Virus record (IMG/VR): IMGVR_UViG_2728369393_000001
Direction: 5' to 3' (one strand)
Length of the DNA stretch: 64,000 nt
Origin: a virus
Lineage: Duplodnaviria > Heunggongvirae > Uroviricota > Caudoviricetes
This document shows, one piece after another, positions 33,208-53,514 of this stretch; within the stretch, counting starts at the first letter, position 1, and each line of letters starts with the position of its first letter. Position numbers and translations under genes: made by a program. Under the pieces are notes generated by a model. It had not been told where the DNA came from, did no database searches, and saw nothing but the letters and a program-made list of their open reading frames with translations.

Positions 33208-33224
33208 ATTGCTCTAATAAATTA
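33208..33224 (+). promoter_or_regulatory. C1 operator overlapping a TTGACA -35 element upstream of coi-c1
   Basis: ATTGCTCTAATAAATTA, 16/17; TTGACA immediately 5 prime. Confidence 0.65.
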
Positions 33225-41397: not shown

Positions 41398-42472
41398 TCT
41401 ATACAGGCATGTATAACAACAACGAGCCTATTAGCTGTCAACAACGTTATTTTCTCAAATAAGAAAAAGCAGAAAACAAATTGTTTAAGGTCACAAATTG
41501 TGGCCTTGATGGAGGAGGGAGGCTTATTGGCTATGGCTAAAAATCAAATTAGACACTTCATGTTGCTGTAGCTCATCAAGATCCGAGGCCACAAAACCTT
41601 TTCCGAAAAACTTCACAAGTAACTCACTAGCCGCATCATTGTCACCTATTACACGAAAGTCATACGGCAACGTCGCAAGTTGACGATGTAATCCTGCTGA
41701 GAAAGTCGAATCTAACAGCGCCCAGAATTCCCACCGCAGGATAATACTCGCCTCTTAATACTGTATATATGTTGTTACGATATGTTTTTCTGTCTCTAAA
41801 AAAAGATGTTAATAGAATGCTAACCATTGAAGGGGATAAAAATATACAATTCCAACAAACGTTATTTTTAACAATTTTTTTCTTTGCGTTGACTTTCCCG
41901 GACACCTTGTCTGACCGAAGGTGCGCGAAAGCCACTTTTTCCTTCCTGAGTTATCCACAAAGTTATGCACTTGCAAGAGGGCCATTTTCTACATATTGTG
42001 GTGGCTAACAGATGAAATGAATGTAGATTAATTGAAGATAAGGAGAAAATTTGAGATGCAATCATGACGTTAATAGATAGGGTCTGCATTACAGACCCCA
42101 CCCGCATCAAGGAATTAGCCGTTCCCTGATGTTTTTCCGAAAACATGTGCCGTAAGCTCACGTTAACGACTTTCATTCACCGAATCCAACTATATAGGGG
42201 TTGGGTTTCTACGTCAACGTGAGCAAGTGCACCTTTACATTTGACAAGGAACCACCTGAATGAACGCTTTTTTTCAGTTCCTGAGTGCATTTTTAGATGC
42301 GCCTATTATTAGCCAGATTCTGGCTATTATCCTCATCATCGTTTTGATTTTGCTTTTAAGGTCAGTAAAAAATGGAATTATGCACTGGCTTACTTAATGT
42401 TTCAGTGAAACATTAAAATCTCCTTGATGTGGAAACAATCATTTTCTGTATGTGCTGGTGGGCACCTGTAGT

Positions 42473-42835
42473 TCAGCTTTCGTTGGCATTTAACTTCGTC
42501 TTTGCTTTCTCCACCAGCAACTTCCAGATGCCTATTTCATTAGCAGCCGCCTTGATGGCGGCATAAAAAGCATCTTGCTGATCGTAACGCTGGATCTGTT
42601 TTTTCAGTTTTGCCTCCACCAATTTAATTTCATTACGTGCTTTCTGAAGCCGCATCACCGCCCGGTTACGTCTGTTCTTGTATAGCGTGTTAATCTCTGA
42701 CAATTGCTTTAATTTACCAGCCTGACTGTGGATTATCGCCTCCCTGGCTTCTGCCGTGCGTCTCATCTGATCTCTTAAGAGTTCACCGTTTTCGATAATT
42801 CTTTCAAGGTGTTTGATGTGATCTGCAACTCTCAT
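42473..42835 (-). CDS. hypothetical coiled-coil protein
   Basis: 120 aa. Confidence 0.4.
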   Translation of the reverse strand: MRVADHIKHLERIIENGELLRDQMRRTAEAREAIIHSQAGKLKQLSEINTLYKNRRNRAVMRLQKARNEIKLVEAKLKKQIQRYDQQDAFYAAIKAAANEIGIWKLLVEKAKTKLNANES

Positions 42836-43506
42836 ACTTCACCCTCGCTTGTATCACCAGCGTCCACCAACGACAATAAAGCCCTGGCCATCTTATGAAC
42901 CAACAGTGCATCAATAATGCCAAGCGTATGCCCCGGCTTAATGTTTAATGCTGCCTCAAGATGACACCTTTCCAGACCGCTTTTCTCGGCTTGTTTATGA
43001 TGATATGGCGTAATAACGTCGCCCAAAACACGGCTAATTCTTTCTCGTAATTGCTGGGTGCCAGCACACTTGATCGCTGTATCGTGGAGACGGTTAACCA
43101 GTTCGCGATAAACATGCGGCTTAATGCGGATACGTTCACCGGTGACGCCCTTTCCTGGCGCTGGCACCGAACTATCCGGAATATCCGGATAGTTGCCAGC
43201 CTCGTAAGCTACCCGCAGCCAGTGCATGAATGTTTCAGTGGACACACAACCACAGTCCACATCGATTTTTCCGCGTTGCTGTTCCAGCCACTGCTCAAAA
43301 TTCAATCTACACGTATTACTTTTATGTTGCTCTTTTTGTCTCAAGGCCAGCACCTGTTGGGCCAGTTCCAGAACGATACCGGGTGACGCTAACCTCTCAA
43401 ATTCCAATAAATAGTTTGCGTCAGGATGACAAGTAGCCTCGCCTGCAAAAAATACCAATTGCTGTAAGTATGCTGTCGTTAGAGTAGTCATTTCTTTTTG
43501 CGCCAT
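42832..43506 (-). CDS. hypothetical protein
   Basis: 224 aa, overlaps neighbours by 4-19 bp (operon-like). Confidence 0.45.
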   Translation of the reverse strand: MAQKEMTTLTTAYLQQLVFFAGEATCHPDANYLLEFERLASPGIVLELAQQVLALRQKEQHKSNTCRLNFEQWLEQQRGKIDVDCGCVSTETFMHWLRVAYEAGNYPDIPDSSVPAPGKGVTGERIRIKPHVYRELVNRLHDTAIKCAGTQQLRERISRVLGDVITPYHHKQAEKSGLERCHLEAALNIKPGHTLGIIDALLVHKMARALLSLVDAGDTSEGEV

Positions 43507-43862
43507 TTCTTTTCACATTCCTTAGTCCATTTTTCAATGTTCATTTTGGCAATATCAGTCATTCCATCACCTAAGAAATACTTTTTCCGGTACGTCTTGC
43601 ACTTAAACCACACTACAACAGCCACCAGCCAGAAAATAAAAGGCCATACGGCAATACCAACTCCAGCCGCGATAAAGCCCAATATCCATAAATGAAGCTC
43701 TCCAACTTCTGTTTCCGGCAATATTCTTAAAGAATTAAACAGCAGGCTGAACGAATGGTCGTATGCATTGGCAGTATAAGACATGCAATCCATATAATTA
43801 AAGTCATAGCCTGCGGCTGCCGCCCATAATGGGCGGTCAAGAAAATGTTTTAGTGTCATCAT
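43488..43862 (-). CDS. membrane protein
   Basis: 124 aa; central hydrophobic helices, Lys-rich C-terminus. Confidence 0.4.
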   Translation of the reverse strand: MMTLKHFLDRPLWAAAAGYDFNYMDCMSYTANAYDHSFSLLFNSLRILPETEVGELHLWILGFIAAGVGIAVWPFIFWLVAVVVWFKCKTYRKKYFLGDGMTDIAKMNIEKWTKECEKKWRKKK

Positions 43863-43868
43863 ATTAAT

Positions 43869-44162
43869 TTAAGGTTCAGACCAGTTATCTTCAATAGCAA
43901 TGCTTAATCTTTGTAGCCATTCTGCTAATTTCAGCATTGCTTCTCTTTCGCTTAAACCACACGGAAAATCATCAAGCGATATTGTTGGCTTGAAGTTTCC
44001 CAAATTATCCATTTCAACGGTCAGATTTTGCTCCAGAACGGTATTTCTTACGCGGCTATTGTGCCGAAGCAAATATACTGAACGTGATTTATTGGTTTTG
44101 TGGTCGAACGTATATTCGGTAAGTATCATCTGACTTCCGCCATGATTATTACCGCGCCACAT
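43869..44162 (-). CDS. hypothetical protein
   Basis: 97 aa. Confidence 0.35.
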   Translation of the reverse strand: MWRGNNHGGSQMILTEYTFDHKTNKSRSVYLLRHNSRVRNTVLEQNLTVEMDNLGNFKPTISLDDFPCGLSEREAMLKLAEWLQRLSIAIEDNWSEP

Positions 44163-44185
44163 AATTACTCCGTGTTAATTGAAAT

Positions 44186-44467
44186 TTAGCTATTAATCTT
44201 CACTTTTATCGCGAACACCTTTACCGGTTTATCACCGAAGTGTGGATGTGTGATTGTTTTTATTTCATATCCGTTATACGGGACGTCAATTCTGCGACTG
44301 AAGTCTTCGCGCTTCGGATATCCCTTTGTGATAATCAGGCGGTAATACTTACGGTTAACGAGGCGCTTATTCCAGTAGTCATTACACAGGCGATACTCTT
44401 CCGTTTTCTCCCCGCGAATCATGGCATCGAAGTATTCACCTTTAACGGCAAGTTGCAGGTTAGCCAT
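44186..44467 (-). CDS. ASCH/PUA-like domain protein
   Basis: MANLQLAVKGEYFDAMIRGEKTEEYRL resembles ASCH N-terminal signature; start 7 codons into track ORF. Confidence 0.4.
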   Translation of the reverse strand: MANLQLAVKGEYFDAMIRGEKTEEYRLCNDYWNKRLVNRKYYRLIITKGYPKREDFSRRIDVPYNGYEIKTITHPHFGDKPVKVFAIKVKINS

Positions 44468-44799
44468 TACCTCACCTCCAGTCTCCATACCGCCTGACCA
44501 ATCCGGCTGGCATGGGTATCTTTGGATACTGTTCCGTCTTTAGCCAGCTCCATAAGAATTTTGCGCAAATCTGCCGAACGCCATTCTTCATCAGGAAATT
44601 CCTTCTCCATTGCCAACCGCAGATTCCAGGTTGCCATCCTGAATGGATATTCCCCGCCGAGAGCTTTATCTTGCAGGGCAGCCCGGTAACGCATCACCTG
44701 CAAAACCTTCTCTTTTACATCCATCTTTTCGCCTCCTGCGGCGGTTCTGGTAGCGGCATCCAGTGTGATGGTATCCACGACGCACCAGGTATTACCCAC
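44467..44799 (-). CDS. hypothetical protein
   Basis: 110 aa. Confidence 0.35.
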   Translation of the reverse strand: MGNTWCVVDTITLDAATRTAAGGEKMDVKEKVLQVMRYRAALQDKALGGEYPFRMATWNLRLAMEKEFPDEEWRSADLRKILMELAKDGTVSKDTHASRIGQAVWRLEVR

Positions 44800-45284
44800 C
44801 CATCATTAGCGTCAGGATGCCCCGGGATGTAAGTCGCCCATTTCATTCGCCAGTCACCTTTCCTGTCAAACTCCCTGGCAACAAGAACGGCTGTTTTGGT
44901 ATCCGGCATTCGCTCACTACAGCTTATCCAGCCATCCGGAGTTACCGGAGAGTTGCCATTTACATCGAAGTTTGGCTCTGCGTCCTGAACCAGGAGGATG
45001 TAACCATTCTTGGCTGTATCAAGTTCTAACGCCTCGGTGACGGTGCCGAAATAGCGATTACCTAAATCAGCATCACAAGTGCTTACATCAATGGAAACTT
45101 CCATGCCTTCGATTAATTCTGGTAAGTTGTAAGTTTGGTTTACAGGCTCTGCTTCCAGCGATGCCAGAGCAATTCGTGCCAGTTCTTCCGCTTCTTCTGC
45201 TGGCAGTACAACGTTGCTACCCGGTCCGTATGTTTCGCGCCACTGCTTGATTGTCAGCAGTCGCTCTTTGGTAATAGTGATCAT
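44715..45284 (-). CDS. hypothetical protein, paralog family A (shares N-terminal module with 46159..46521)
   Basis: MITITKERLL..ELARIALASLEAEPV shared at protein and DNA level. Confidence 0.5.
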   Translation of the reverse strand: MITITKERLLTIKQWRETYGPGSNVVLPAEEAEELARIALASLEAEPVNQTYNLPELIEGMEVSIDVSTCDADLGNRYFGTVTEALELDTAKNGYILLVQDAEPNFDVNGNSPVTPDGWISCSERMPDTKTAVLVAREFDRKGDWRMKWATYIPGHPDANDGWVIPGASWIPSHWMPLPEPPQEAKRWM

Positions 45285-45868
45285 GCCGCGTTTCCTTCTT
45301 TCTTATTAACAATTACACCGTCATATATTTCATTAAGGTGCCCTCTCAACTCCATGCGCCTTAATGCAGATAACATGTAATCGCATTCAACCTGCTTATT
45401 TCCAGTAAATGGCTTATCGTCAGGATTACCCCAACAGCAATTACCCTTGGGCCACCCATGTACTTTCCGTACTCTTCCGTTAACAACGTGAAGTAATCCC
45501 CAGCCAGGTGGTAAATCCTCAACTGAAATAATTCCCGGCTCACTAATAAAGAATCGCCAGTCGCCCATTCCAAGAGATGGATTTTTACGAAAACGCTTTT
45601 TTCTATCTGCCAACAAGTCAGCACGAGAACACTTCGCCTCTATCAGGCATGATGCTGAATTTCTGAATCCCATAGCATCTGGCTGTTCTCCGGTACTGGT
45701 TACAGCTATAAAGCGGTCATGAAAACAAACCTTGAACCCGTTGCGCTTAAGGAACTTATACGCAATCTGACAGAGTTCGCGGTGTGTTAACGCCATATCA
45801 CTCTCCTTTAGTGCGCAAGTGGTTTTTCCAGCGGTTTTGCGCCGCGCTGGGCTTTTTGCAAAAACCAC
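45281..45868 (-). CDS. hypothetical protein with possible PD-(D/E)xK nuclease-like motif
   Basis: D..EAK spacing in GEQPDAMGF..LIEAKCS; start uncertain. Confidence 0.35.
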   Translation of the reverse strand: MVFAKSPARRKTAGKTTCALKESDMALTHRELCQIAYKFLKRNGFKVCFHDRFIAVTSTGEQPDAMGFRNSASCLIEAKCSRADLLADRKKRFRKNPSLGMGDWRFFISEPGIISVEDLPPGWGLLHVVNGRVRKVHGWPKGNCCWGNPDDKPFTGNKQVECDYMLSALRRMELRGHLNEIYDGVIVNKKEGNAA

Positions 45869-46158
45869 AATCCATCATCCCGTAATATTTCATCAACCCC
45901 ATCCGTCGGTTGCTGAGTCTCACCCACTGCCAGACGCCAGGAGCGTTTCTACGAACTAACAGAATCTTTGCTTTACGGTTTTTCATCGCTTTGCTCTCCT
46001 GCGTCTCTTTGCTGCTCGTCGTGCCGCTGCAATACCGGTATGGCGGCGCTTTGGTGCCGGGATGATGTTGTCAGCCATCAGGACATGTGGCTTTGCAATT
46101 AGCGCAGAAGCCCAAAAACGAGTCGGGTACGGTAACAAGCCGAAAAATGCCACACGCA

Positions 46159-46521
46159 TTACTCATCTCCCTTACCCTGAAGCATGGCAGCGCGGCAGGC
46201 GTTCCAGCCATCAACATAATCAAACGTATTGCTATCGTCTGGCTCGATTTCATCCGGCACTACCGGCTCTGGTTGGATAGTGACGTTGGCAAAGGCAGCA
46301 CGCAAACCGGCCTTAATTTCCTCTACTTCATCAGCGCCTAGCGATGAATCTGACAATGCGTGATGGAATGCGTAAGCCATGTCGTCGTTTACTGCAACCG
46401 GTTCGGCTTCCAGTGATGCCAGCGCAATTCGTGCCAGTTCCATTTGTTCGCCACGGGTAAGCCCGTTATCAAGCGGATTTTTAATGAATAATTCGATACG
46501 TTCTTTGGTAATAGTGGTCAT
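46159..46521 (-). CDS. hypothetical protein, paralog family A
   Basis: MTTITKERIELFIK..ELARIALASLEAEPV. Confidence 0.45.
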   Translation of the reverse strand: MTTITKERIELFIKNPLDNGLTRGEQMELARIALASLEAEPVAVNDDMAYAFHHALSDSSLGADEVEEIKAGLRAAFANVTIQPEPVVPDEIEPDDSNTFDYVDGWNACRAAMLQGKGDE

Positions 46522-46760
46522 TTGTTAATCCTCAAAACTTTATGCCCGGGCGCAAAAGCACGTGTTTTGTCTTTACTTATTCGCCACCCGTCTTTACGGG
46601 CCTCTTTTGCACAACCAGACCATGACGTACCGATATACTCACCGAAGTCTGGCACTGGATATACACCTTCCGTACACTGGCGGCAGTCACAATAGAGATG
46701 CATGGTGTAACTTGCAGCGATAGCCATATCACTCTCCTTTGATGCGAATGCCTGTTGCAA
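46518..46760 (-). CDS. hypothetical Cys-rich small protein
   Basis: 80 aa; CDC..C motif. Confidence 0.35.
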   Translation of the reverse strand: MQQAFASKESDMAIAASYTMHLYCDCRQCTEGVYPVPDFGEYIGTSWSGCAKEARKDGWRISKDKTRAFAPGHKVLRINK

Positions 46761-47214
46761 TGCTGTTTATGATGCTGTCAGTGCATGGGGTAGAAAGCTG
46801 GGCATCTCCAGCAATTTTCATGACATCAACATCTGCATATCGAATACCGAGGTGTATCAGACCGGCTATACCTGACTTAAGCCGAGCATTTTCCATAAAC
46901 AGATCCTTTGCCCGCTGTTTTTCTGCCTCAAGCTCAACGCGCAACTTCCCTACCGTTAGCGCAATATCCTCGTTCTCCTGGTCGCGGGATTTGATGTATT
47001 GCTGGTTTCTTTCCCGTTCATCCAGTAGTGCCAGCACGGTTTCTGGTCCGGCCAGAAATTTGAAGGCGTTGAGCGCATCAATATCCACACCGTAATCTTT
47101 AAGTTCCTGTTCGCTTATCAGATCATCATCAACTGGCAACATTAACAGGCGTTCCATTGCCGGAATTGCACGTTCTGCCGCCTCACGCAGTGCCTGATAG
47201 TTAATTTTGGTCAT
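46729..47214 (-). CDS. hypothetical coiled-coil protein
   Basis: 161 aa; INYQALREAAERA N-terminus similar to 48530..49267. Confidence 0.4.
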   Translation of the reverse strand: MTKINYQALREAAERAIPAMERLLMLPVDDDLISEQELKDYGVDIDALNAFKFLAGPETVLALLDERERNQQYIKSRDQENEDIALTVGKLRVELEAEKQRAKDLFMENARLKSGIAGLIHLGIRYADVDVMKIAGDAQLSTPCTDSIINSIATGIRIKGE

Positions 47215-47215
47215 A

Positions 47216-47515
47216 TCACATCACCCTGAAGCCGTTGCATTTACGTAAAAAATCGCAGATATAGCCCTTCATTTTTTCGTGCCAATCTCGATCATTCCCA
47301 TTGCACCAACCATCAGGTGGAGTCCAGTTTTCTATCAGAGCAGCCATTTTCTTTGCTTTCGCCGGAGTAGCTGTTGCGGTATCGCAGTAATGACGAGTGT
47401 CAACCAACGTATCCATACCATCGATATCAAGTACGCAAAACCATGTGTGATTCGGCATTTCAACAGATGGTATTTGTTGCCCACGTCGACGTTTATCAAT
47501 AAGACATACAGTCAC
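47216..47515 (-). CDS. hypothetical protein
   Basis: 99 aa. Confidence 0.35.
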   Translation of the reverse strand: MTVCLIDKRRRGQQIPSVEMPNHTWFCVLDIDGMDTLVDTRHYCDTATATPAKAKKMAALIENWTPPDGWCNGNDRDWHEKMKGYICDFLRKCNGFRVM

Positions 47516-48246
47516 TGGTTGCCTCCTTTGCGAAGCTGGGCAGCAAAGTCAACTAACCACTCAGTCATTTCAACCTTCCCTACCAGGTCTGAACCAGGGT
47601 GCATACAGCAATCACTCTGCGCCGCTTTGAAATCCTTATACTCATATTCTTGGGCCACCAGATTTTTTGCAGCTTCTATAGCAGCATCCACCCCCTGCGC
47701 CCGGACTTCAGCCAAGAAAGCGTCGGTGGCTGACATATTTCCTGTTGCCTTCATGGCCTTCAAAATAACCAGAACGCCATCTCGCCCAACCACCTCAGCG
47801 ATAACCTCGGTGTTGTCGCCAACAACATCGCAGAATGCCTGAAATGCCTTACGAGCCAGCTCATTCTCCACTGCCAGCGCCGTGCGATTACCCTCCAGCT
47901 CTGCAATGCGCTGTTTTGCGGCATCCAGTTCAATCGACAATTTTTCCAACTGCTCTTGATGCTTCTTGTATTCCTGATATGCGTGCCAAGACTGACCTTT
48001 GCGCACACTATCAGTGATATCAGTAATCTGTTCTGGTGTTAGCGTGGTCAGTGGCTGTGATGGGAAAATAAGCACTTTCCCGGAATCCCAATCAAAACCA
48101 GCGTGAATTGACTGAACCTCAACTGAAGGTGTTGAACCAATGCTGCCAGGCGAATGAACAACGATTGTTACATCCATATCGCGACGATGGCTGTGGTTGT
48201 TGGACAAAATACGATTCACCAACTCAGAAAATTTGGAAATTTTCAT
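47512..48246 (-). CDS. hypothetical protein, paralog family B
   Basis: 244 aa; ATDAFLAEVRA module and RKGGNQ C-terminus shared with neighbours. Confidence 0.45.
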   Translation of the reverse strand: MKISKFSELVNRILSNNHSHRRDMDVTIVVHSPGSIGSTPSVEVQSIHAGFDWDSGKVLIFPSQPLTTLTPEQITDITDSVRKGQSWHAYQEYKKHQEQLEKLSIELDAAKQRIAELEGNRTALAVENELARKAFQAFCDVVGDNTEVIAEVVGRDGVLVILKAMKATGNMSATDAFLAEVRAQGVDAAIEAAKNLVAQEYEYKDFKAAQSDCCMHPGSDLVGKVEMTEWLVDFAAQLRKGGNQ

Positions 48247-48566
48247 GCTGATTCCCCTTTCTCTGCTCTCTCCTGTCGGAACATCACTATCATCAGGTCG
48301 CCTTTTGTCGCTATCCTGGCTGTTGTACCTGGTTCAATGCGGCTAAGCTCAAATGCGTCATAGAACGCTTCTAATGCCTTCTGGCGTAGTTCCTGTTTGC
48401 GCCGTTTTTTCCACTGTTTTAGGAAAATGGAACCCAGCCATCGCCATGTGCGGGACATGATGTAAAGCCAACCGAGAAGTGCCAGACCGGTATTTAGGAG
48501 CGTATCGATCGTTATTGTCGTGTCGATATTCACTGGCTGCTTCCTTTGCGAATCTGTTCCGCCCAT
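48243..48566 (-). CDS. small membrane protein
   Basis: 107 aa, one hydrophobic helix. Confidence 0.35.
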   Translation of the reverse strand: MGGTDSQRKQPVNIDTTITIDTLLNTGLALLGWLYIMSRTWRWLGSIFLKQWKKRRKQELRQKALEAFYDAFELSRIEPGTTARIATKGDLMIVMFRQERAEKGESA

Positions 48567-49267
48567 TCTTCAAGGGATTTCTCCGCATATTCACCAGACA
48601 GGCCATCAATCGGATGCGCTTCATTAGCCAACTCTTCTTTCGCTGACAAAATCATGCGTGTAACGTCGAAAACTTCACGCAAAGACTTATTGATAAATCC
48701 GTGATTGAACGCAGCAGCAAGACGGCTGGCGGTATAGTTAATCCCCTCGTTGCGTGCTTCCGCACGAATTTCAGCCAGAAAAGCATCGGTAGCTGGAGTT
48801 TCGCTGTGGTGTAGGGCATCGTTGATAATCATTGCAGCAACTCCGGCCTGCCCTGCATCCGTGACCGACACATGATCAAGAGTTACAGCCATTGCGTGTT
48901 TCAGCCCAGCGTTCTCTGCCACCAGAGCCGCGAGCTTAGTCTCAAGCGGTGCTATTCGGCACATAGCATCAATATTTGTGTCCTCCAGGCGCTTAATTTC
49001 ACCAAGTAGCTCCAGTGCAACCTTTGGGTTGAATGCGGCAATATAACGAGCGTTGTTCTCTGCGTTTTTCAGTCCATCAAAGCCGGTCCATTTGATAACG
49101 TCTTCACATCGTTTATCACCGGGCGTATGCACCGCATACGTACCAGTACCCGGCGAAATAAATGCGACCCATTCGCCCTGTGTTGCCTGTTTTGCTATCT
49201 CACGCAGTGCCCGGTAATTAATTTCGCTCACTGGCTGCCTCCTTTGCGGAGTTGCGCTTCGATGCAC
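48530..49267 (-). CDS. hypothetical protein, paralog family B
   Basis: 245 aa; ATDAFLAEIRA and RKGSSQ C-terminus. Confidence 0.45.
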   Translation of the reverse strand: MHRSATPQRRQPVSEINYRALREIAKQATQGEWVAFISPGTGTYAVHTPGDKRCEDVIKWTGFDGLKNAENNARYIAAFNPKVALELLGEIKRLEDTNIDAMCRIAPLETKLAALVAENAGLKHAMAVTLDHVSVTDAGQAGVAAMIINDALHHSETPATDAFLAEIRAEARNEGINYTASRLAAAFNHGFINKSLREVFDVTRMILSAKEELANEAHPIDGLSGEYAEKSLEEWAEQIRKGSSQ

Positions 49268-49467
49268 GAAAAAAAAGACTCCCGAGTATGACTGTTAAGA
49301 GCTGGTGCGAACGCCGCGTTAAGAACGGCAGCATCACAGCCGTCATCAATATAGAGCGCAATTTTTTTCTCCAGGCGCGCTTTGGCTTCCTGCAACTGCA
49401 TACCCCGGCACGCACGCGGGATATAATCAGCAATTTGAGCGATAGCTTTTTCGTTCTGTTTAAACAT
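49228..49467 (-). CDS. small protein sharing the family B C-terminal tail
   Basis: 79 aa ending QLRKGGSQ. Confidence 0.35.
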   Translation of the reverse strand: MFKQNEKAIAQIADYIPRACRGMQLQEAKARLEKKIALYIDDGCDAAVLNAAFAPALNSHTRESFFSCIEAQLRKGGSQ

Positions 49468-49663
49468 GCTTCACCTCGATAGGCTTGATGGTGTCTAACA
49501 GCAGTCGACGGCGCGTATTTTCTGCAAAGTGGCGGCGTCCGGTATCTTTGTGGTAAAACTCATTTTTGCCGACGACCCACATCCGCTCTGTTTGGTGCAG
49601 TTTTTTTACCTGCGGCCCGTCTTTGGTGATCACGGTGCCGGTATGGGTTTTTACGATTGTCAT
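49460..49663 (-). CDS. hypothetical small protein
   Basis: 67 aa. Confidence 0.3.
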   Translation of the reverse strand: MTIVKTHTGTVITKDGPQVKKLHQTERMWVVGKNEFYHKDTGRRHFAENTRRRLLLDTIKPIEVKHV

Positions 49664-49746
49664 GCCACTACCTCTTCGAACAGATGAACGAGACAGGCCG
49701 ATGCTCGTCCACCTGAAAAACTGACGATTTGATGCATACTCACGGT

Positions 49747-50475
49747 TTATTCCTGAATGCGCTTAAACTCGATTACCCACACCCAGGGATTAGCGTTCCA
49801 GCTTTCTTCACCATAGATGGATTCCCACAGGCGCTGGAACGCAACCTTGGCCATTGCGAAATCCCTCTTGGGAGTAAGGAATGTTCCCGGGTGATCAGGA
49901 AGCAAACTTCCAGCAGGCGGAACGCCCTCAGCCCTTGCATCGCATTCGCTGATATCGTTCAACCGTTCAACGCGCACGTTGGTAATTTCCAACAGAATGC
50001 GTGATGCCCATCGCGGCATGTGAATTGATGGACGCCACCCACCATCAAACTTTTCATTCACAGTGTGAGGTTTCCAGTCGGCATCATCGGGTATCGACCA
50101 TAAGCCGTAATCACCAGGTTTTTGCTCACAACTGGCCCGATAAATCCTTGCTGCGTTCTTCTCATCGCCACGACAAAGGTTGTCGTTCCAGTCCACACTG
50201 CAACCATCTTCATTGCCTAATATCGTCCATGTTTCACGAACCCAAATTCGATCGCCGACGATACCAAAGGGGCAATTGAAAACACTGCTTACACCATCAG
50301 CCCCGTACCACTGAAAACCTGCACCAATTTCCCTAACCATCACTGGTGCTTCTGGACCAACTTCCGCAGGCTGATTTTTCATTATCCGCCGCGTCTGCGT
50401 TTTCCTTCCTTCGAGGATGGCTCGGACCATCTCATCGTTGAAAATCATGCCGCGCTCTTTCACTTCGCCTTTCAT
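49747..50475 (-). CDS. ASCH-like domain protein
   Basis: MIFNDEMVRAILEGRKTQTRR N-terminal signature. Confidence 0.45.
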   Translation of the reverse strand: MKGEVKERGMIFNDEMVRAILEGRKTQTRRIMKNQPAEVGPEAPVMVREIGAGFQWYGADGVSSVFNCPFGIVGDRIWVRETWTILGNEDGCSVDWNDNLCRGDEKNAARIYRASCEQKPGDYGLWSIPDDADWKPHTVNEKFDGGWRPSIHMPRWASRILLEITNVRVERLNDISECDARAEGVPPAGSLLPDHPGTFLTPKRDFAMAKVAFQRLWESIYGEESWNANPWVWVIEFKRIQE

Positions 50476-50653
50476 GCATCCCCCTTACCCATGCGCGACG
50501 ATGCCGCCAAAAGTGATAGAGAACAGCCAGAAATAGATCGCGGCCATAATGATTTTGAATGCCGTGTTCATATTTTCAGCTCCTGTGATTGATTGGATAC
50601 ATGCCGCGCCTTGCGGCATGTTTTTATTTTCACTTTCTCTGTTTTAAAAATCA

Positions 50654-50670
50654 AGATTTATTAGAGCAAT
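50654..50670 (-). promoter_or_regulatory. C1 operator-like site
   Basis: minus strand ATTGCTCTAATAAATCT, 16/17. Confidence 0.55.
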
Positions 50671-51176
50671 TATTGTTGATGGAGAAGCGCGTTTTCATAC
50701 TCCCTGACCATTAACGTAAGTACGCCGTGACTCCTGAAAACACGCGCCACGTCAATCTTATCTTCCAGCGCGAACGCAATTTTACTTAGACCAATTTTCT
50801 TCAGGAGATCAATCTTTGCTGGACCGTCATTTCTGTCATCGGTGGCAGGACGCATAGATAGCAAAGGCTCAGTCCCATTTGTTACGTGCTTACGCAACCA
50901 GGCTCGTGTTTTATCCCTGGCTATCTCACAGCGCCCGGTTACAAACCAGAGGGTGTAAATGCCGGACAACTGGCGCACCATATCAATAACTGAAGTGATG
51001 GGAGCATCAGTGTCACAGGCAAGGTTAAACTCGTTCCAGTGCTCTGTTAATGCACCTTTGCCAGGTGGTGGAAGTAAATGCAGCCTGTCTTCCGTTGCCT
51101 CTGATATCGTCCCATCAATATCTACTATGACGATGTACGGACGTTCCTGGTGTGCGTGTTTATTGAAAATACTCAA
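50670..51176 (-). CDS. HAD-superfamily phosphatase-like protein
   Basis: VIVDIDGTI = DxDxT HAD motif I near N-terminus. Confidence 0.45.
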   Translation of the reverse strand: MSIFNKHAHQERPYIVIVDIDGTISEATEDRLHLLPPPGKGALTEHWNEFNLACDTDAPITSVIDMVRQLSGIYTLWFVTGRCEIARDKTRAWLRKHVTNGTEPLLSMRPATDDRNDGPAKIDLLKKIGLSKIAFALEDKIDVARVFRSHGVLTLMVREYENALLHQQ

Positions 51177-51248
51177 ATGCCCTCCTCATTGGACGAAAAA
51201 AATGCTGGTGGGAGCACTCCACCAGCATTAAAAGTGACACTGTAACTA

Positions 51249-52511
51249 TCAGCGAACGTAAATAGTGCCGCCGTTCTCTTTTTCCCATGCATCGCTACGT
51301 GCATAGCAAACATCGAGAAGTCTTCTTGCCGCAGTTTCCTCTAAACCCAATTCGACAACCAACTGCTCATGACGGCGGGTAACCACATCAAACAGGGTAT
51401 GCAGCCCTTTAGTTGCCAGATCATCAATGAATTCCGGTTCGAACGGCAGCTCTGCATCTGCCAACATAACCTCTTGCGCCCACTCAACTCGACGGACCAA
51501 TTCCGGGCGGCGGCTTTCCATCTCTTTACAGATCAATTCATGGAAGAACTCTACCCAACCTTCCGGCTGGAACTCGCGGAAAATTGCCAACGGCTGGAAG
51601 TTTGGCATCAACCATTCGTTGATTCGGATATCAATGGCATAGCCCATGTCGCAGCAGAACTGATAAGCAAAGTCCAGCTTAGAAACGATATAAGGACGCT
51701 CGTTATTGAACTCTTTAGGCGATGAGATCCCATAAGCCAGGAGGCGCGGGAAGAAGGAGATTTGCCCTAACGTCGGATGAAGTTTGCTTGCAGGGAAACG
51801 GCGCTCAGTAATGCCATACATTTCCTTCTTGAGCGTCGCAAATTTGGCATTCTCATTAACCAGCGCGGTAACCTCTGCTTTTTTATTAGCAAATGCCACG
51901 CGCGCTTCGCTTGCATCTTTAATAGTTTTTTTGAGCTGTTGGTTAAGGTCAGCGACCTGCTTACGCAGTTCCTGTCGCTCGCTTTTAGCTTTGTTATAGC
52001 GTTTCTCAAGGTTAAAAGGATCAAGTTTCATGATCTCTTTATATTGAGATTTTAGCGTTGAAATCTGTGAGTTCCGCAGTTCAACCATCGCGGTCATTTC
52101 ATTGAGTTTTGTTTCCAGCTCAATGCTTATACGTTCGGCATTATCAGCACGCTGGTTGGCGTCATGCGTCGCATCGTCGATCGCGTCCTGTTGCTGGCGT
52201 TTCAAATGTTCAATTTGCAGCTGAAGCTCTTCAATTTCTTTACCCTTCAGACCGAGATCCAACTGCATATTTTCAGCTGCATCTACCAGGGAGTTATGGC
52301 TATCAGCTTCTGCGTTATAAACATCAATAAGCTGTGCGTGAAGCATCTCCGCTGACTGAACCGCATTATCAAAAAAACGTGCTGTGAGGTCATCACAACT
52401 AACGCGGCGTTGCGCGGCCCGGATGTTCTGGATAATGGCCGGGATACCGGCATTCAGGACATCAGGGATAGATACATTTTCGATTGATTGGTTTTGTGCT
52501 GAAGTGCTCAT
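51249..52511 (-). CDS. hypothetical protein with long coiled-coil N-terminal half
   Basis: 420 aa. Confidence 0.45.
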   Translation of the reverse strand: MSTSAQNQSIENVSIPDVLNAGIPAIIQNIRAAQRRVSCDDLTARFFDNAVQSAEMLHAQLIDVYNAEADSHNSLVDAAENMQLDLGLKGKEIEELQLQIEHLKRQQQDAIDDATHDANQRADNAERISIELETKLNEMTAMVELRNSQISTLKSQYKEIMKLDPFNLEKRYNKAKSERQELRKQVADLNQQLKKTIKDASEARVAFANKKAEVTALVNENAKFATLKKEMYGITERRFPASKLHPTLGQISFFPRLLAYGISSPKEFNNERPYIVSKLDFAYQFCCDMGYAIDIRINEWLMPNFQPLAIFREFQPEGWVEFFHELICKEMESRRPELVRRVEWAQEVMLADAELPFEPEFIDDLATKGLHTLFDVVTRRHEQLVVELGLEETAARRLLDVCYARSDAWEKENGGTIYVR

Positions 52512-52512
52512 T

Positions 52513-52731
52513 TCAAAGTTCCGTATTAGCTTGTGCTTCGGTCATTTTTCCTAAGTATGAAGGAGGAAGGACTACGCAATTTGTATCCAGTCCCTCACCT
52601 ATGGCAGCCTGTAAAATTCTGGCTAAGGTGAGTCTCTTGTTGCGATACCTGGTGATGACATGCCTGATACCGCCGGTCGGCGTAACAAAGGCGATCAGCC
52701 AGTAGTGATATTTCCGTCGGAATGGCCACAT
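52513..52731 (-). CDS. hypothetical small protein
   Basis: 72 aa. Confidence 0.3.
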   Translation of the reverse strand: MWPFRRKYHYWLIAFVTPTGGIRHVITRYRNKRLTLARILQAAIGEGLDTNCVVLPPSYLGKMTEAQANTEL

Positions 52732-52745
52732 AGTGCACCTTGTAG

Positions 52746-52762
52746 ATTGCTCTAATAAAAAA
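52746..52762 (+). promoter_or_regulatory. C1 operator-like site (left of a palindrome)
   Basis: ATTGCTCTAATAAAAAA, 15/17. Confidence 0.5.
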
Positions 52763-52794
52763 CGTGATGAGTGTACATCACGTTTTAAAAATAT

Positions 52795-52811
52795 GGAATT
52801 ATTAGAGCAAT
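52795..52811 (-). promoter_or_regulatory. C1 operator-like site (right of the palindrome, inverted)
   Basis: minus strand ATTGCTCTAATAATTCC, 14/17. Confidence 0.5.
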
Positions 52812-52812
52812 A

Positions 52813-53514
52813 TTATTCTGATTCTCGCTCAAAAAACGAGCTAATAAGGGGAAGCCAATCCTCTGACACTTCGCGAGGTCGCGGTTTGCCGTGGAAAAAG
52901 ATTATTCGGCAGTCCTTTGGTAATGCCCCATTCCCCCTGGAGTAACGCGCGCTCGCATATTTTGAACCAGGTTCCACAACATCGGCCTTGTAACTTACAA
53001 ACCATCCTGGATACAGATCCTGAAATGCTGGTGTATCATCGCCCATAACCTTCCGTAAGAACCCCTGATCACCCCAGCACTCAGTAGTGACACAACGAGA
53101 AATCCAACCTTCCGGATCTTGCCAGAATGAACTCCAGATATGCGCTTTTACACTATTTGGTATCCACAGGGCACCGCTACCACGATATTGTGGATGGTAA
53201 AAATCCCTAAGCATGGTGAAGCTGGTTGGTGGATTCTCAAGGATTGGGCGTATATCACCGGCAATAACTGTGTCCAAATCCAGATAGAACAGATCATCTG
53301 TTATATCCGGTCGGAACAACTCGATTTTCGCCCACCAGCCACGGCACTTTTGCCACTGGTTGATCAATGGGACAACTTTGACGCCAGGTACATGTAAACG
53401 CTTCAGGTCTGTCAGGCAAATAATTTCATAGCCTTTTGGCAGTTGATTAACCAGCCACTGCACATCGGAAGCGTTATAGTCACCACCAGAGCGAAAAACT
53501 AAAGCAATCTTCAT
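52813..53514 (-). CDS. hypothetical protein, possible DxD-type glycosyltransferase
   Basis: 233 aa; YLDLDTV motif; weak. Confidence 0.35.

Follow-up and report, generated by a model that had tools for sequence, protein, structure and literature searches.

Why do neighbouring small genes of a phage-plasmid carry the same short segments in different combinations? We addressed this question in a 64,000-nucleotide (nt) stretch of DNA (the window) from a virus of the Caudoviricetes (IMG/VR record IMGVR_UViG_2728369393_000001), a P1-like phage-plasmid in which sixteen small genes on the minus strand run from about 50475 to 44186. We numbered the genes g16 to g01 in the order of transcription (Table 1). 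A sequence-only reading had described several of them as mosaic paralog families with shuffled N- and C-terminal modules, and had taken this to point to recombination between paralogs within the element. We found that modules are indeed shuffled, that the apparent C-terminal module is a joint between genes, and that the genes of the operon have probably been reassorted across the pool of temperate phages, by recombination at such joints and at conserved motif islands within genes.

Shared segments and gene joints in the operon

The shared segments are homologous and exceed what is expected by chance. We compared the sixteen proteins with each other using BLASTP, compared the shared DNA patches, and found three significant relations: g03 (residues 1-48) with g07 (residues 1-42; 57% identity, E = 4e-7), g11 (residues 98-244) with g13 (residues 80-233; 27% identity, E = 4e-6), and g09 (residues 1-160) with g13 (residues 1-163; 29% identity, E = 4e-6). 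The last of these, which spans the Ea22 N-terminus and coiled coil, was absent from the sequence-only reading. The best repeat windows (39/44, 33/35, and 28/30 identical positions) were well above the maxima in triplet shuffles of the region (29, 25, and 24), and the homologies are neither too short nor too degenerate to be accepted. No further copy of any module was found elsewhere in the 64-kilobase (kb) window.

The N-terminal module of g03 and g07 (module A) is shared as proposed, but its DNA likeness is not one stretch of about 60 base pairs (bp). It consists of two patches, one matching at 21 of 23 positions (45262-45284 versus 46499-46521) and one at 39 of 44 (the ELARIALASLEAEP patch), with about 75-90 nt of unrelated sequence in between. 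The six differences that we counted in and around the 44-nt patch, reading by eye, were all synonymous. The ATDAFLAE(I/V)RA segment was correctly assigned to both g11 and g13, where it is a DNA patch (28/35) inside their longer homology. The Ea22 N-terminal region contributes another patch (47166-47213 versus 49183-49230; 77% over 48 nt). The block therefore holds three Ea22-type paralogs (g09, g11, and g13) and two module-A proteins (g03 and g07), each mixing shared and unshared parts. Judged from identities of 27-57% in amino acid sequence and 77-91% in the shared DNA patches, these paralogs are old.

The C-terminal tail RKGG(S/N)Q is a nucleotide-level joint between genes and not a protein domain. 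A 21-nt motif, CGCAAAGGAGGCARCCAGTGA (type A), is present at the end of all three genes that had been said to share the tail (g11, g13, and g14), with zero or one mismatch and none expected in shuffles, although the product of g13 ends RKGSSQ. On the coding strand the motif reads CGC AAA GGA GGC ARC CAG TGA. The AAGGAGG within it is a near-perfect Shine-Dalgarno sequence (duplex with the 3' end of 16S rRNA, -11.6 kcal/mol; spacer, 5 nt), and the GTG within CCAGTGA, which overlaps the TGA stop, is the start codon of g10, g12, and g13, as it is in RefSeq. The gene that had been drawn from 48530 to 49267 (g13) thus starts at the GTG at 49231, so that its overlap with g14 is 4 nt and not 40. Because the joint combines the stop of one gene with the translation-initiation region of the next, it appears as a shared C-terminal peptide.

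There is a second joint of this kind. An 18-nt motif, AAAGGAGAGTGATATGGC (type B), is present twice, with no copies expected by chance, and encodes ..KGE and a stop, followed by AT and then ATG. As protein matches, the tails alone were not significant in BLASTP (E = 0.12 and E = 2).

The joints lie in a tightly packed operon. From g15 to g01 there are 14 junctions, with -10 to +1 nt between successive genes, and at each of them a Shine-Dalgarno sequence lies inside the last codons of the preceding gene. From this geometry, the joints are predicted to couple translation of successive genes. A scan for promoters and terminators found no internal promoter-like site on the coding strand of the block, none at the joints, and a single, weak terminator-like site on the minus strand (5-bp stem, 47787-47772). 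The predicted RNA folds of the five joints differed among copies (z-scores of -1.5 to +0.3), and none was shared or significant.

We considered and rejected two structural candidates for the joints. A cassette unit like the PeSLs of T4-type phages did not fit, as there was no promoter-like site at any joint, only the one weak terminator-like site on the coding strand, and no conserved stem-loop. A hairpin like attC, or an attenuator, did not fit either, as no conserved or significant structure was present at the joints (an integron-type integrase in the window was not searched for). With no RNA family, conserved fold, promoter, or terminator at the joints, they are neither PeSL-like nor attC-like.

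Table 1. Joints, genes, shared patches, and flanking features of the operon (window coordinates).
Feature	Position	Strand	Description
Type-A joint, copy 1 (g11 to g10)	47512..47532	-	CGCAAAGGAGGCAACCAGTGA; Shine-Dalgarno duplex -11.6 kcal/mol, spacer 5 nt
Type-A joint, copy 2 (g13 to g12, DUF4752)	48530..48550	-	CGCAAAGGAAGCAGCCAGTGA; stop/start junction
Type-A joint, copy 3 (g14 to g13)	49228..49248	-	CGCAAAGGAGGCAGCCAGTGA; stop/start junction
Type-B joint, copy 1 (g05 to g04)	45792..45809	-	AAAGGAGAGTGATATGGC; tail ..TKGE
Type-B joint, copy 2 (g09 to g08)	46723..46740	-	same 18-mer; tail ..IKGE
g03	44715..45284	-	N-terminal module A (residues 1-48), middle segment, DUF551 (residues 118-183)
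g04	45281..45796	-	171 residues, no Pfam match
g07	46159..46521	-	module A (residues 1-42) and unrelated C-terminal part, without DUF551
g09	46729..47214	-	Ea22-like N-terminus and coiled coil, own C-terminal domain, ends ..GIRIKGE
g10	47216..47515	-	DUF7739 cassette, Pfam 77 bits
g11	47512..48246	-	N-terminus phrog_6026, Ea22-type coiled coil, C-terminal ATDAFLAEVRA region, ends RKGGNQ
g12	48243..48533	-	DUF4752 cassette, GTG start, Pfam 143.8 bits
g13	48530..49231	-	full-length Ea22-like protein, GTG start, ends RKGSSQ
g14	49228..49467	-	unrelated 79-residue protein, phrog_1344, ends RKGGSQ; only the tail in common
ELARIALASLEAEP patch of g03	45142..45185	-	39/44 versus partner in g07
ELARIALASLEAEP patch of g07	46397..46440	-	partner of 45142-45185
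ATDAFLAEVRA patch of g11	47698..47732	-	28/35 versus partner in g13
ATDAFLAEIRA patch of g13	48761..48795	-	partner of 47698-47732
Lambdoid-type accessory gene block	43208..49780	-	6.57 kb, no counterpart in canonical P1; holds the whole finding
C1 repressor operator OpmgT	50654..50670		ATTGCTCTAATAAATCT; minus strand; exact 17-nt match to annotated P1 operator; upstream of the operon

Probable exchange in the wider phage pool

The joints connect unrelated genes in many combinations. We scanned viral contigs in IMG/VR for exact matches to each joint and analyzed at least 120 stretches for each. Type A occurred in at least 156 distinct contexts, with at least 24 combinations of upstream C-terminal regions (at least 7, unrelated to each other) and downstream families (at least 12); among the matches listed, one Ea22-like gene followed by another was the commonest arrangement. 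For type B there were at least 128 contexts and at least 52 combinations, made up of at least 19 regions upstream and at least 14 families downstream, and g04 was the commonest downstream gene (39 of 128 contexts among the matches listed). Conservation extended beyond the searched cores by about 15 nt upstream for type A and about 12 nt upstream for type B, and for type B it fell to background right after the start codon. In different genomes, both joints are at stop/start junctions and are flanked by non-homologous genes, as boundary sequences are.

The joint, including its start codon, belongs to the end of the upstream gene. To counter bias from retrieval through the joints, we retrieved further loci, 80 each, starting from DUF4752 and from DUF7739, the proteins encoded downstream. 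A type-A joint preceded about half of the genes for DUF4752 and three quarters of those for DUF7739, and quite different junctions preceded the others. DUF7739 and an Ea22 homolog start with ATG when they are behind other junctions, and it is this switch of DUF7739 from GTG to ATG in the absence of type A that assigns the start codon to the joint.

A different view of the tails is that the peptides themselves have a function, for example in tagging the proteins for degradation or in docking, and that the likeness of the DNA is secondary. Every Ea22 protein, however divergent otherwise, ends in K/RGE, with "significance unknown" (PMC7093339), and some of the conservation that we observed reaches into ..FAxQL.. 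and ..AGIRI... However, the sequence of the type-A tail peptide is variable (RKGGNQ, RKGSSQ, RRGSSK, REGGNK, LPGGNQ, and others), and what stays constant is the GGAGG core and its distance to the start codon that follows. The tails are found on unrelated folds, always with a downstream gene that starts 5-6 nt past the purine run. Among distinct type-A-like tails there were 2179 non-synonymous and 653 synonymous codon differences, and the ELARIALASLEAEP and ATDAFLAEVRAQG patches showed the reverse, with synonymous differences in excess (22111/15516 and 13733/10304), a contrast that is qualitative only because the retrieval criteria differed. We consider it extremely improbable that the tails are primarily functional peptides. 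Most simply, the RKGG(N/S)Q and K/RGE tails are explained as the translation of the joints.

The modules within genes are also found in many combinations. We used fourteen module queries in 120 loci retrieved through the type-A joint and found more than 30 architectures among the matches listed. Module A was combined with DUF551 in 26 cases and with the C-terminal part of g07 (g07-C) in 2, and g07-C was combined with DUF551 in 3. The Ea22 N-terminus was followed by the coiled coil and DUF551 in 7 cases and by the C-terminal part of g11 in 7, and the N-terminus of g11 was joined to the g09 coiled coil and g09 C-terminal part in 2.

These combinations bear on whether the modules were shuffled by recombination or gene conversion between paralogous copies inside the element, as the sequence-only reading had proposed. 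Potential substrates for such events, in the form of direct repeats (three type-A joints, two type-B joints, and the patches), do lie within 5 kb, and relatives are rearranged between the two type-B positions. But the paralogs have diverged to the protein identities given above, and their patches, at 77-91% identity and with synonymous differences between g03 and g07, lack the near-identity that recent conversion would give. In addition, long parts of the block are present at 95-99% identity in other phages and plasmids, suggesting that the copies are not each other's closest relatives, and the same modules are found elsewhere in the many architectures just described. Exchange within the element is, in our judgment, very unlikely to be the source of the shared modules. 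The age of the paralogs, together with the high identity of parts of the block to other phages and plasmids, indicates instead that the combinations were assembled in the wider lambdoid and P1-like pool.

Breakpoints between the window and its relatives cluster at gene boundaries, including the joints, and at the shared patches. We aligned the window with about 280 loci using BLASTN, took the ends of segments with an identity of 88% or more as breakpoints, and obtained 223 distinct coordinates. One third (33%) were within 20 nt of gene boundaries, which make up 11% of the length (p = 6e-18), and another 33% were at the shared intragenic patches, which make up 9% (p = 8e-23); these p-values are based on distinct coordinates without phylogenetic correction, in a sample that is redundant and was partly retrieved through the joints. 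There were pile-ups at 45142, the end of ELARIALASLEAEPV (29 relatives), and at the ATDAFLAEVRA patch (47687, 17 loci; 47732, 48 loci). The other largest pile-ups were at 46914-46925, 47033-47046, 47173, 47213, 47512-47532, and 48530-48542.

In very close relatives we observed swaps with a starting point exactly at a joint. Over the stretches that they share with the window, P1-like plasmids are 95-99.6% identical to it. The identity of plasmid p25-07338_3 to the window is 99.2% as far as 47512, where the type-A joint after g11 has its last base. Past the joint, GCAAGATTGATTATCAA.. (VSKIDYQKLRE, another Ea22 N-terminus read from the GTG of the joint) replaces g10 and the N-terminus of g09, and the plasmid rejoins the window at 47046, at LLDERERNQQY, with 99.6% identity. 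In phage RCS47 the order is g05, type B, g08, where the window has g05, type B, g04 and also g09, type B, g08. The joints thus coincide with mosaic breakpoints in both relatives. The DUF551 protein of RCS47 has a g03-type A module followed by 170 unrelated residues. In plasmid pNR329_1, three other genes are in place of g15 and g14, and the Ea22 gene starts with ATG behind a different junction.

Based on these comparisons, we favor the view that the genes of this operon have been reassorted across the temperate-phage pool by recombination at joints and conserved motif islands, and we regard it as probable. The proposed substrate is a 15-gene, tightly packed, translationally coupled operon of lambdoid exo-xis/ea-type genes downstream of OpmgT that would be expressed once C1 repression is lifted. 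Its mosaic families (Ea22-like, DUF551, and the unnamed N-terminal "TITKER..ELARIALASLEAEP" module) would be built from exchangeable segments. Exchange would occur at two kinds of sites: gene joints of about 30-36 nt, of type CGCAAAGGAGGCARCCAGTGA or AAAGGAGAGTGATATGGC, in which the last codons and stop of one gene are fused with the Shine-Dalgarno sequence, spacer, and start of the next; and intragenic islands of protein motifs, namely ELARIALASLEAEP, ATDAFLAEVRAQG, and the start of the coiled coil, LLDERERNQQY. The exchanges would be homologous recombination on these short homologies, probably carried out by Red-beta/RecT-type annealases of phages. For Red-beta, efficient pairing requires a segment of at least 23-27 bp (PMC3945230), and the length of the joints (21-36 nt) is in that range. 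The joints would also provide translational coupling. The proteins may act like lambda Ea22, as oligomeric coiled-coil scaffolds with variable C-terminal domains that are made early.

Several points weigh against recombination at the joints, and some of them favor the Hendrix model, in which recombination is illegitimate and random, selection retains the products at gene and domain borders, the shared patches are no more than functional motifs under conservation or the ends of domains, and joints resemble each other through independent selection for a strong Shine-Dalgarno sequence and an overlapping stop/start junction. We infer recombination at the joints from comparative patterns, and the functions of the proteins and their translational coupling are predictions. 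The breakpoint statistics carry the limits stated with them and, because BLAST segments must end where similarity ends, some clustering at conserved islands is expected under any mechanism. In this very region, canonical P1 has a deletion joint that is illegitimate, with microhomology of no more than 4 nt. The motif patches diverge substantially at synonymous sites, as is typical of protein-level constraint; they are kept by selection on the protein and need not be crossover sites. Finally, boundary sequences could not be found at most phage mosaic joints (PMC3029335).

Against the Hendrix model, a Shine-Dalgarno sequence needs only about 6-8 nt, and the joints of unrelated genes are identical over 18-21 nt and conserved over about 30-36 nt, including the spacer and the codons before the site. 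The matrices of combinations are dense for both joints, the type of start codon (GTG or ATG) switches together with the joint, and, between plasmids with 99% identity, the swap starts at the final base of a joint. We consider the Hendrix model unlikely as an account of the joints, although selection of that type may still explain the intragenic patches, which are clearly under selection at the protein level.

Recombination at the joints might go further and amount to a system for exchanging the early accessory genes of lambdoid phages and P1-like phage-plasmids as cassettes, in the manner of PeSLs or of an integron that lacks an integrase. Each joint would supply a ready ribosome-binding site and start codon, and recombination between joints would excise or insert whole genes, possibly through small circles, always in frame and expressed. 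If this were true, the K/RGE and RKGGNQ C-termini of Ea22-type proteins would be by-products. We offer this analogy tentatively and regard it as possible but doubtful.

The operon, its genes, and the P1-like element

The members of the operon belong to known families, and profiles from PHROG cover only parts of several of the proteins, so that the modularity is already visible there. g03 matches DUF551 (PF04448; 75 bits, gathering threshold 22), phrog_60 (1e-61), and, over residues 1-51, phrog_3323. g07 matches phrog_5117 over its full length and phrog_12449, and the same 120-residue architecture is present in other loci; g03 and g07 both match one common stretch of phrog_60 and the first 50-70 positions of phrog_3323. 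Both g09 (111.1 bits) and g13 (92.9 bits) are well above the gathering threshold of 27 for Ead_Ea22 (PF13935), and they align with positions 1-151 and 1-239 of phrog_368, respectively. g11 aligns with positions 16-239 of phrog_368 (1e-74) and gave no match to PF13935 in Pfam; judged from these profiles, it is a partial Ea22 relative that shares the coiled coil and C-terminal part. The g04 protein carries a D..E-x-K-like motif (..PDAMGF..LIEAKCS..) reminiscent of PD-(D/E)xK nucleases.

In the identical RefSeq record, g07 is annotated as "incomplete, missing C-terminus", g04 as "frameshifted", and g09 as starting at 47157 instead of 47214. All three appear to be full length when set against homologs in other phages. 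Mosaic proteins seem to mislead automatic calls of pseudogenes and start sites, and two apparently intact genes are flagged as pseudogenes here.

The window is from a P1-like phage-plasmid. A 6.4-kb query (44100-50500) was 100% identical to the RefSeq P1-like plasmid pCFSAN004176P_03 (Escherichia coli CFSAN004176, 95.7 kb), and plasmids from O111 strains matched it at 99.5-99.9%. The neighboring genes (pmgS, pap, humD, phd/doc, and lpa) are P1 genes, and the operon has the setting of the P1 pmgT operon, with pmgS-pap and hot/lxr/humD-phd-doc on its flanks and OpmgT in front. A promoter-like site (50698-50669) overlaps OpmgT. Five more 17-mers within two mismatches of the P1 C1 operator, at 33208(+), 33672(+), 33141(-), 52811(-), and 17443(-), are presumably other C1-controlled operators of the phage-plasmid. 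Two strong terminator-like hairpins are on either side of pap, at 50599-50621(+) and 51229-51201(-). A search of 42500-51500 against Rfam at a permissive threshold gave only a sub-threshold GcvB-like match (20 bits versus 42), outside genes, which coincides with the hairpin at 50599-50621(+) and is probably due to chance.

Canonical P1 looks like a deleted form of this region. Positions 49781-53000 of the window correspond to P1 (NC_005856) 81963-85182 at 98% identity, and 41852-43207 to P1 85182-86535 at 94%; the two stretches are contiguous in P1, so that 43208-49780 is extra relative to it. The junction in P1, CCCTGGGT|TACGAGG, has the short microhomology mentioned above and fuses the g16 homolog out of frame to the conserved open reading frame that follows, at 42832-43506, which suggests deletion. 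In P1, the C-terminal end of "PmgT" and the unusual overlap between pmgT and pmgU (196 nt) look like by-products of that deletion.

The block is in variable region 8, within the C1-repressed pmgT operon. The interval from pmgT to humD is one of eight variable regions in P1-like phage-plasmids (Wang et al. 2022, PMC9603915). In JL22, pmgT is replaced at the same location by a cluster of genes of unknown function that includes "ra22", and RCS47 has Ea22-like and DUF551 genes at the same pmgT-humD site; in contrast to these versions of the region, the block described here is longer.

Segments of the block are also present in lambdoid phages. Stx2a and Stx2c phages have segments about 96% identical to 44100-50500 that cover 23-43% of the 6.4 kb, and single phage records match up to 43% of the query at 96-98%. 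As far as these alignments indicate, the identity to Stx phages reflects recent exchange of lambda-like with P1-like phages; no exchange between these groups was detected in the smaller data set of De Paepe et al. 2014 (PMC3945230).

Significance and comparison with known systems

The block consists of ordinary lambda-type early accessory genes on a P1-like phage-plasmid, and its members are of known kinds. The sequence is in RefSeq, the families are in Pfam, Ea22 has already been described as mosaic in the literature, and boundary sequences were proposed in 1978 and 2001. Although genuine, the finding is ordinary and matters little as a discovery. What it adds is an explanation of the conserved K/RGE and RKGGNQ tails as the ribosome-binding site of the next gene, and two joints that make an unusually clear and quantifiable case for the linker model of phage mosaicism, a model usually considered to apply rarely.

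The closest counterpart of the mosaic proteins is Ea22 of phage lambda. Experiments with lambda and Stx phages indicate that lambda Ea22 is tetrameric and favors lysogeny (PMC7093339, PMC10834534), and its published mosaicism includes a variant bearing DUF551 (PMC10834534). g09 is 53.5% identical to lambda Ea22 over residues 1-101; g13 starts with GTG as lambda ea22 does, and both read VSEIN.QALRE. The proteins here have the published Ea22 layout of a short N-terminus, a coiled coil, and a variable C-terminal domain. g09 ends in the same GIRIKGE as lambda Ea22, encoded by the same 24 nt, GGCATTCGCATCAAAGGAGAGTGA, at the 3' end of the gene. In lambda ea22 (NC_001416, 29847-30395, examined with 190 nt downstream), type B is kept up to the stop (..AAAGGAGAGTGA); after the stop there is GATCGG instead of TATGGC and no start codon. 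The end of lambda ea22 looks like a vestigial ribosome-binding site left after loss of a downstream cassette.

There are also differences from lambda. The present genes are on a P1-like phage-plasmid under C1 and not in a lambdoid prophage under pL, and there are three Ea22-type paralogs within 2.5 kb, of which g11 has no Ea22 N-terminus. The C-terminal domains here, including that of g09, are unrelated to the solved domain of lambda Ea22. Consistent with this, a sequence search of the PDB with g09 and g13 gave only a designed coiled coil (E = 0.2).

The joints resemble two kinds of sequences described in other phages. The first are the PeSLs of T4-type phages, repeats with a Shine-Dalgarno sequence and start codon that flank small non-essential genes in a hyperplastic region, where they appear to mediate the insertion, deletion, and replacement of cassettes (Arbiol et al. 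2010, PMC2839356). PeSLs are intergenic units of about 100 bp with a promoter and a terminator stem-loop, whereas the joints here are 20-36 nt long and lie inside coding sequence, and the genes that they connect, unlike PeSL cassettes, stay in one polycistronic operon. The second are the conserved boundary ("linker") sequences of lambdoid phages such as HK620 (Susskind and Botstein 1978 and Clark 2001, as cited in PMC3029335). As described there, the linkers, like the joints, are short, conserved sequences at gene borders with non-homologous flanks, located at mosaic breakpoints. Relative to that description, the joint here is specifically the translation-initiation region of the next gene together with the stop of the previous one.

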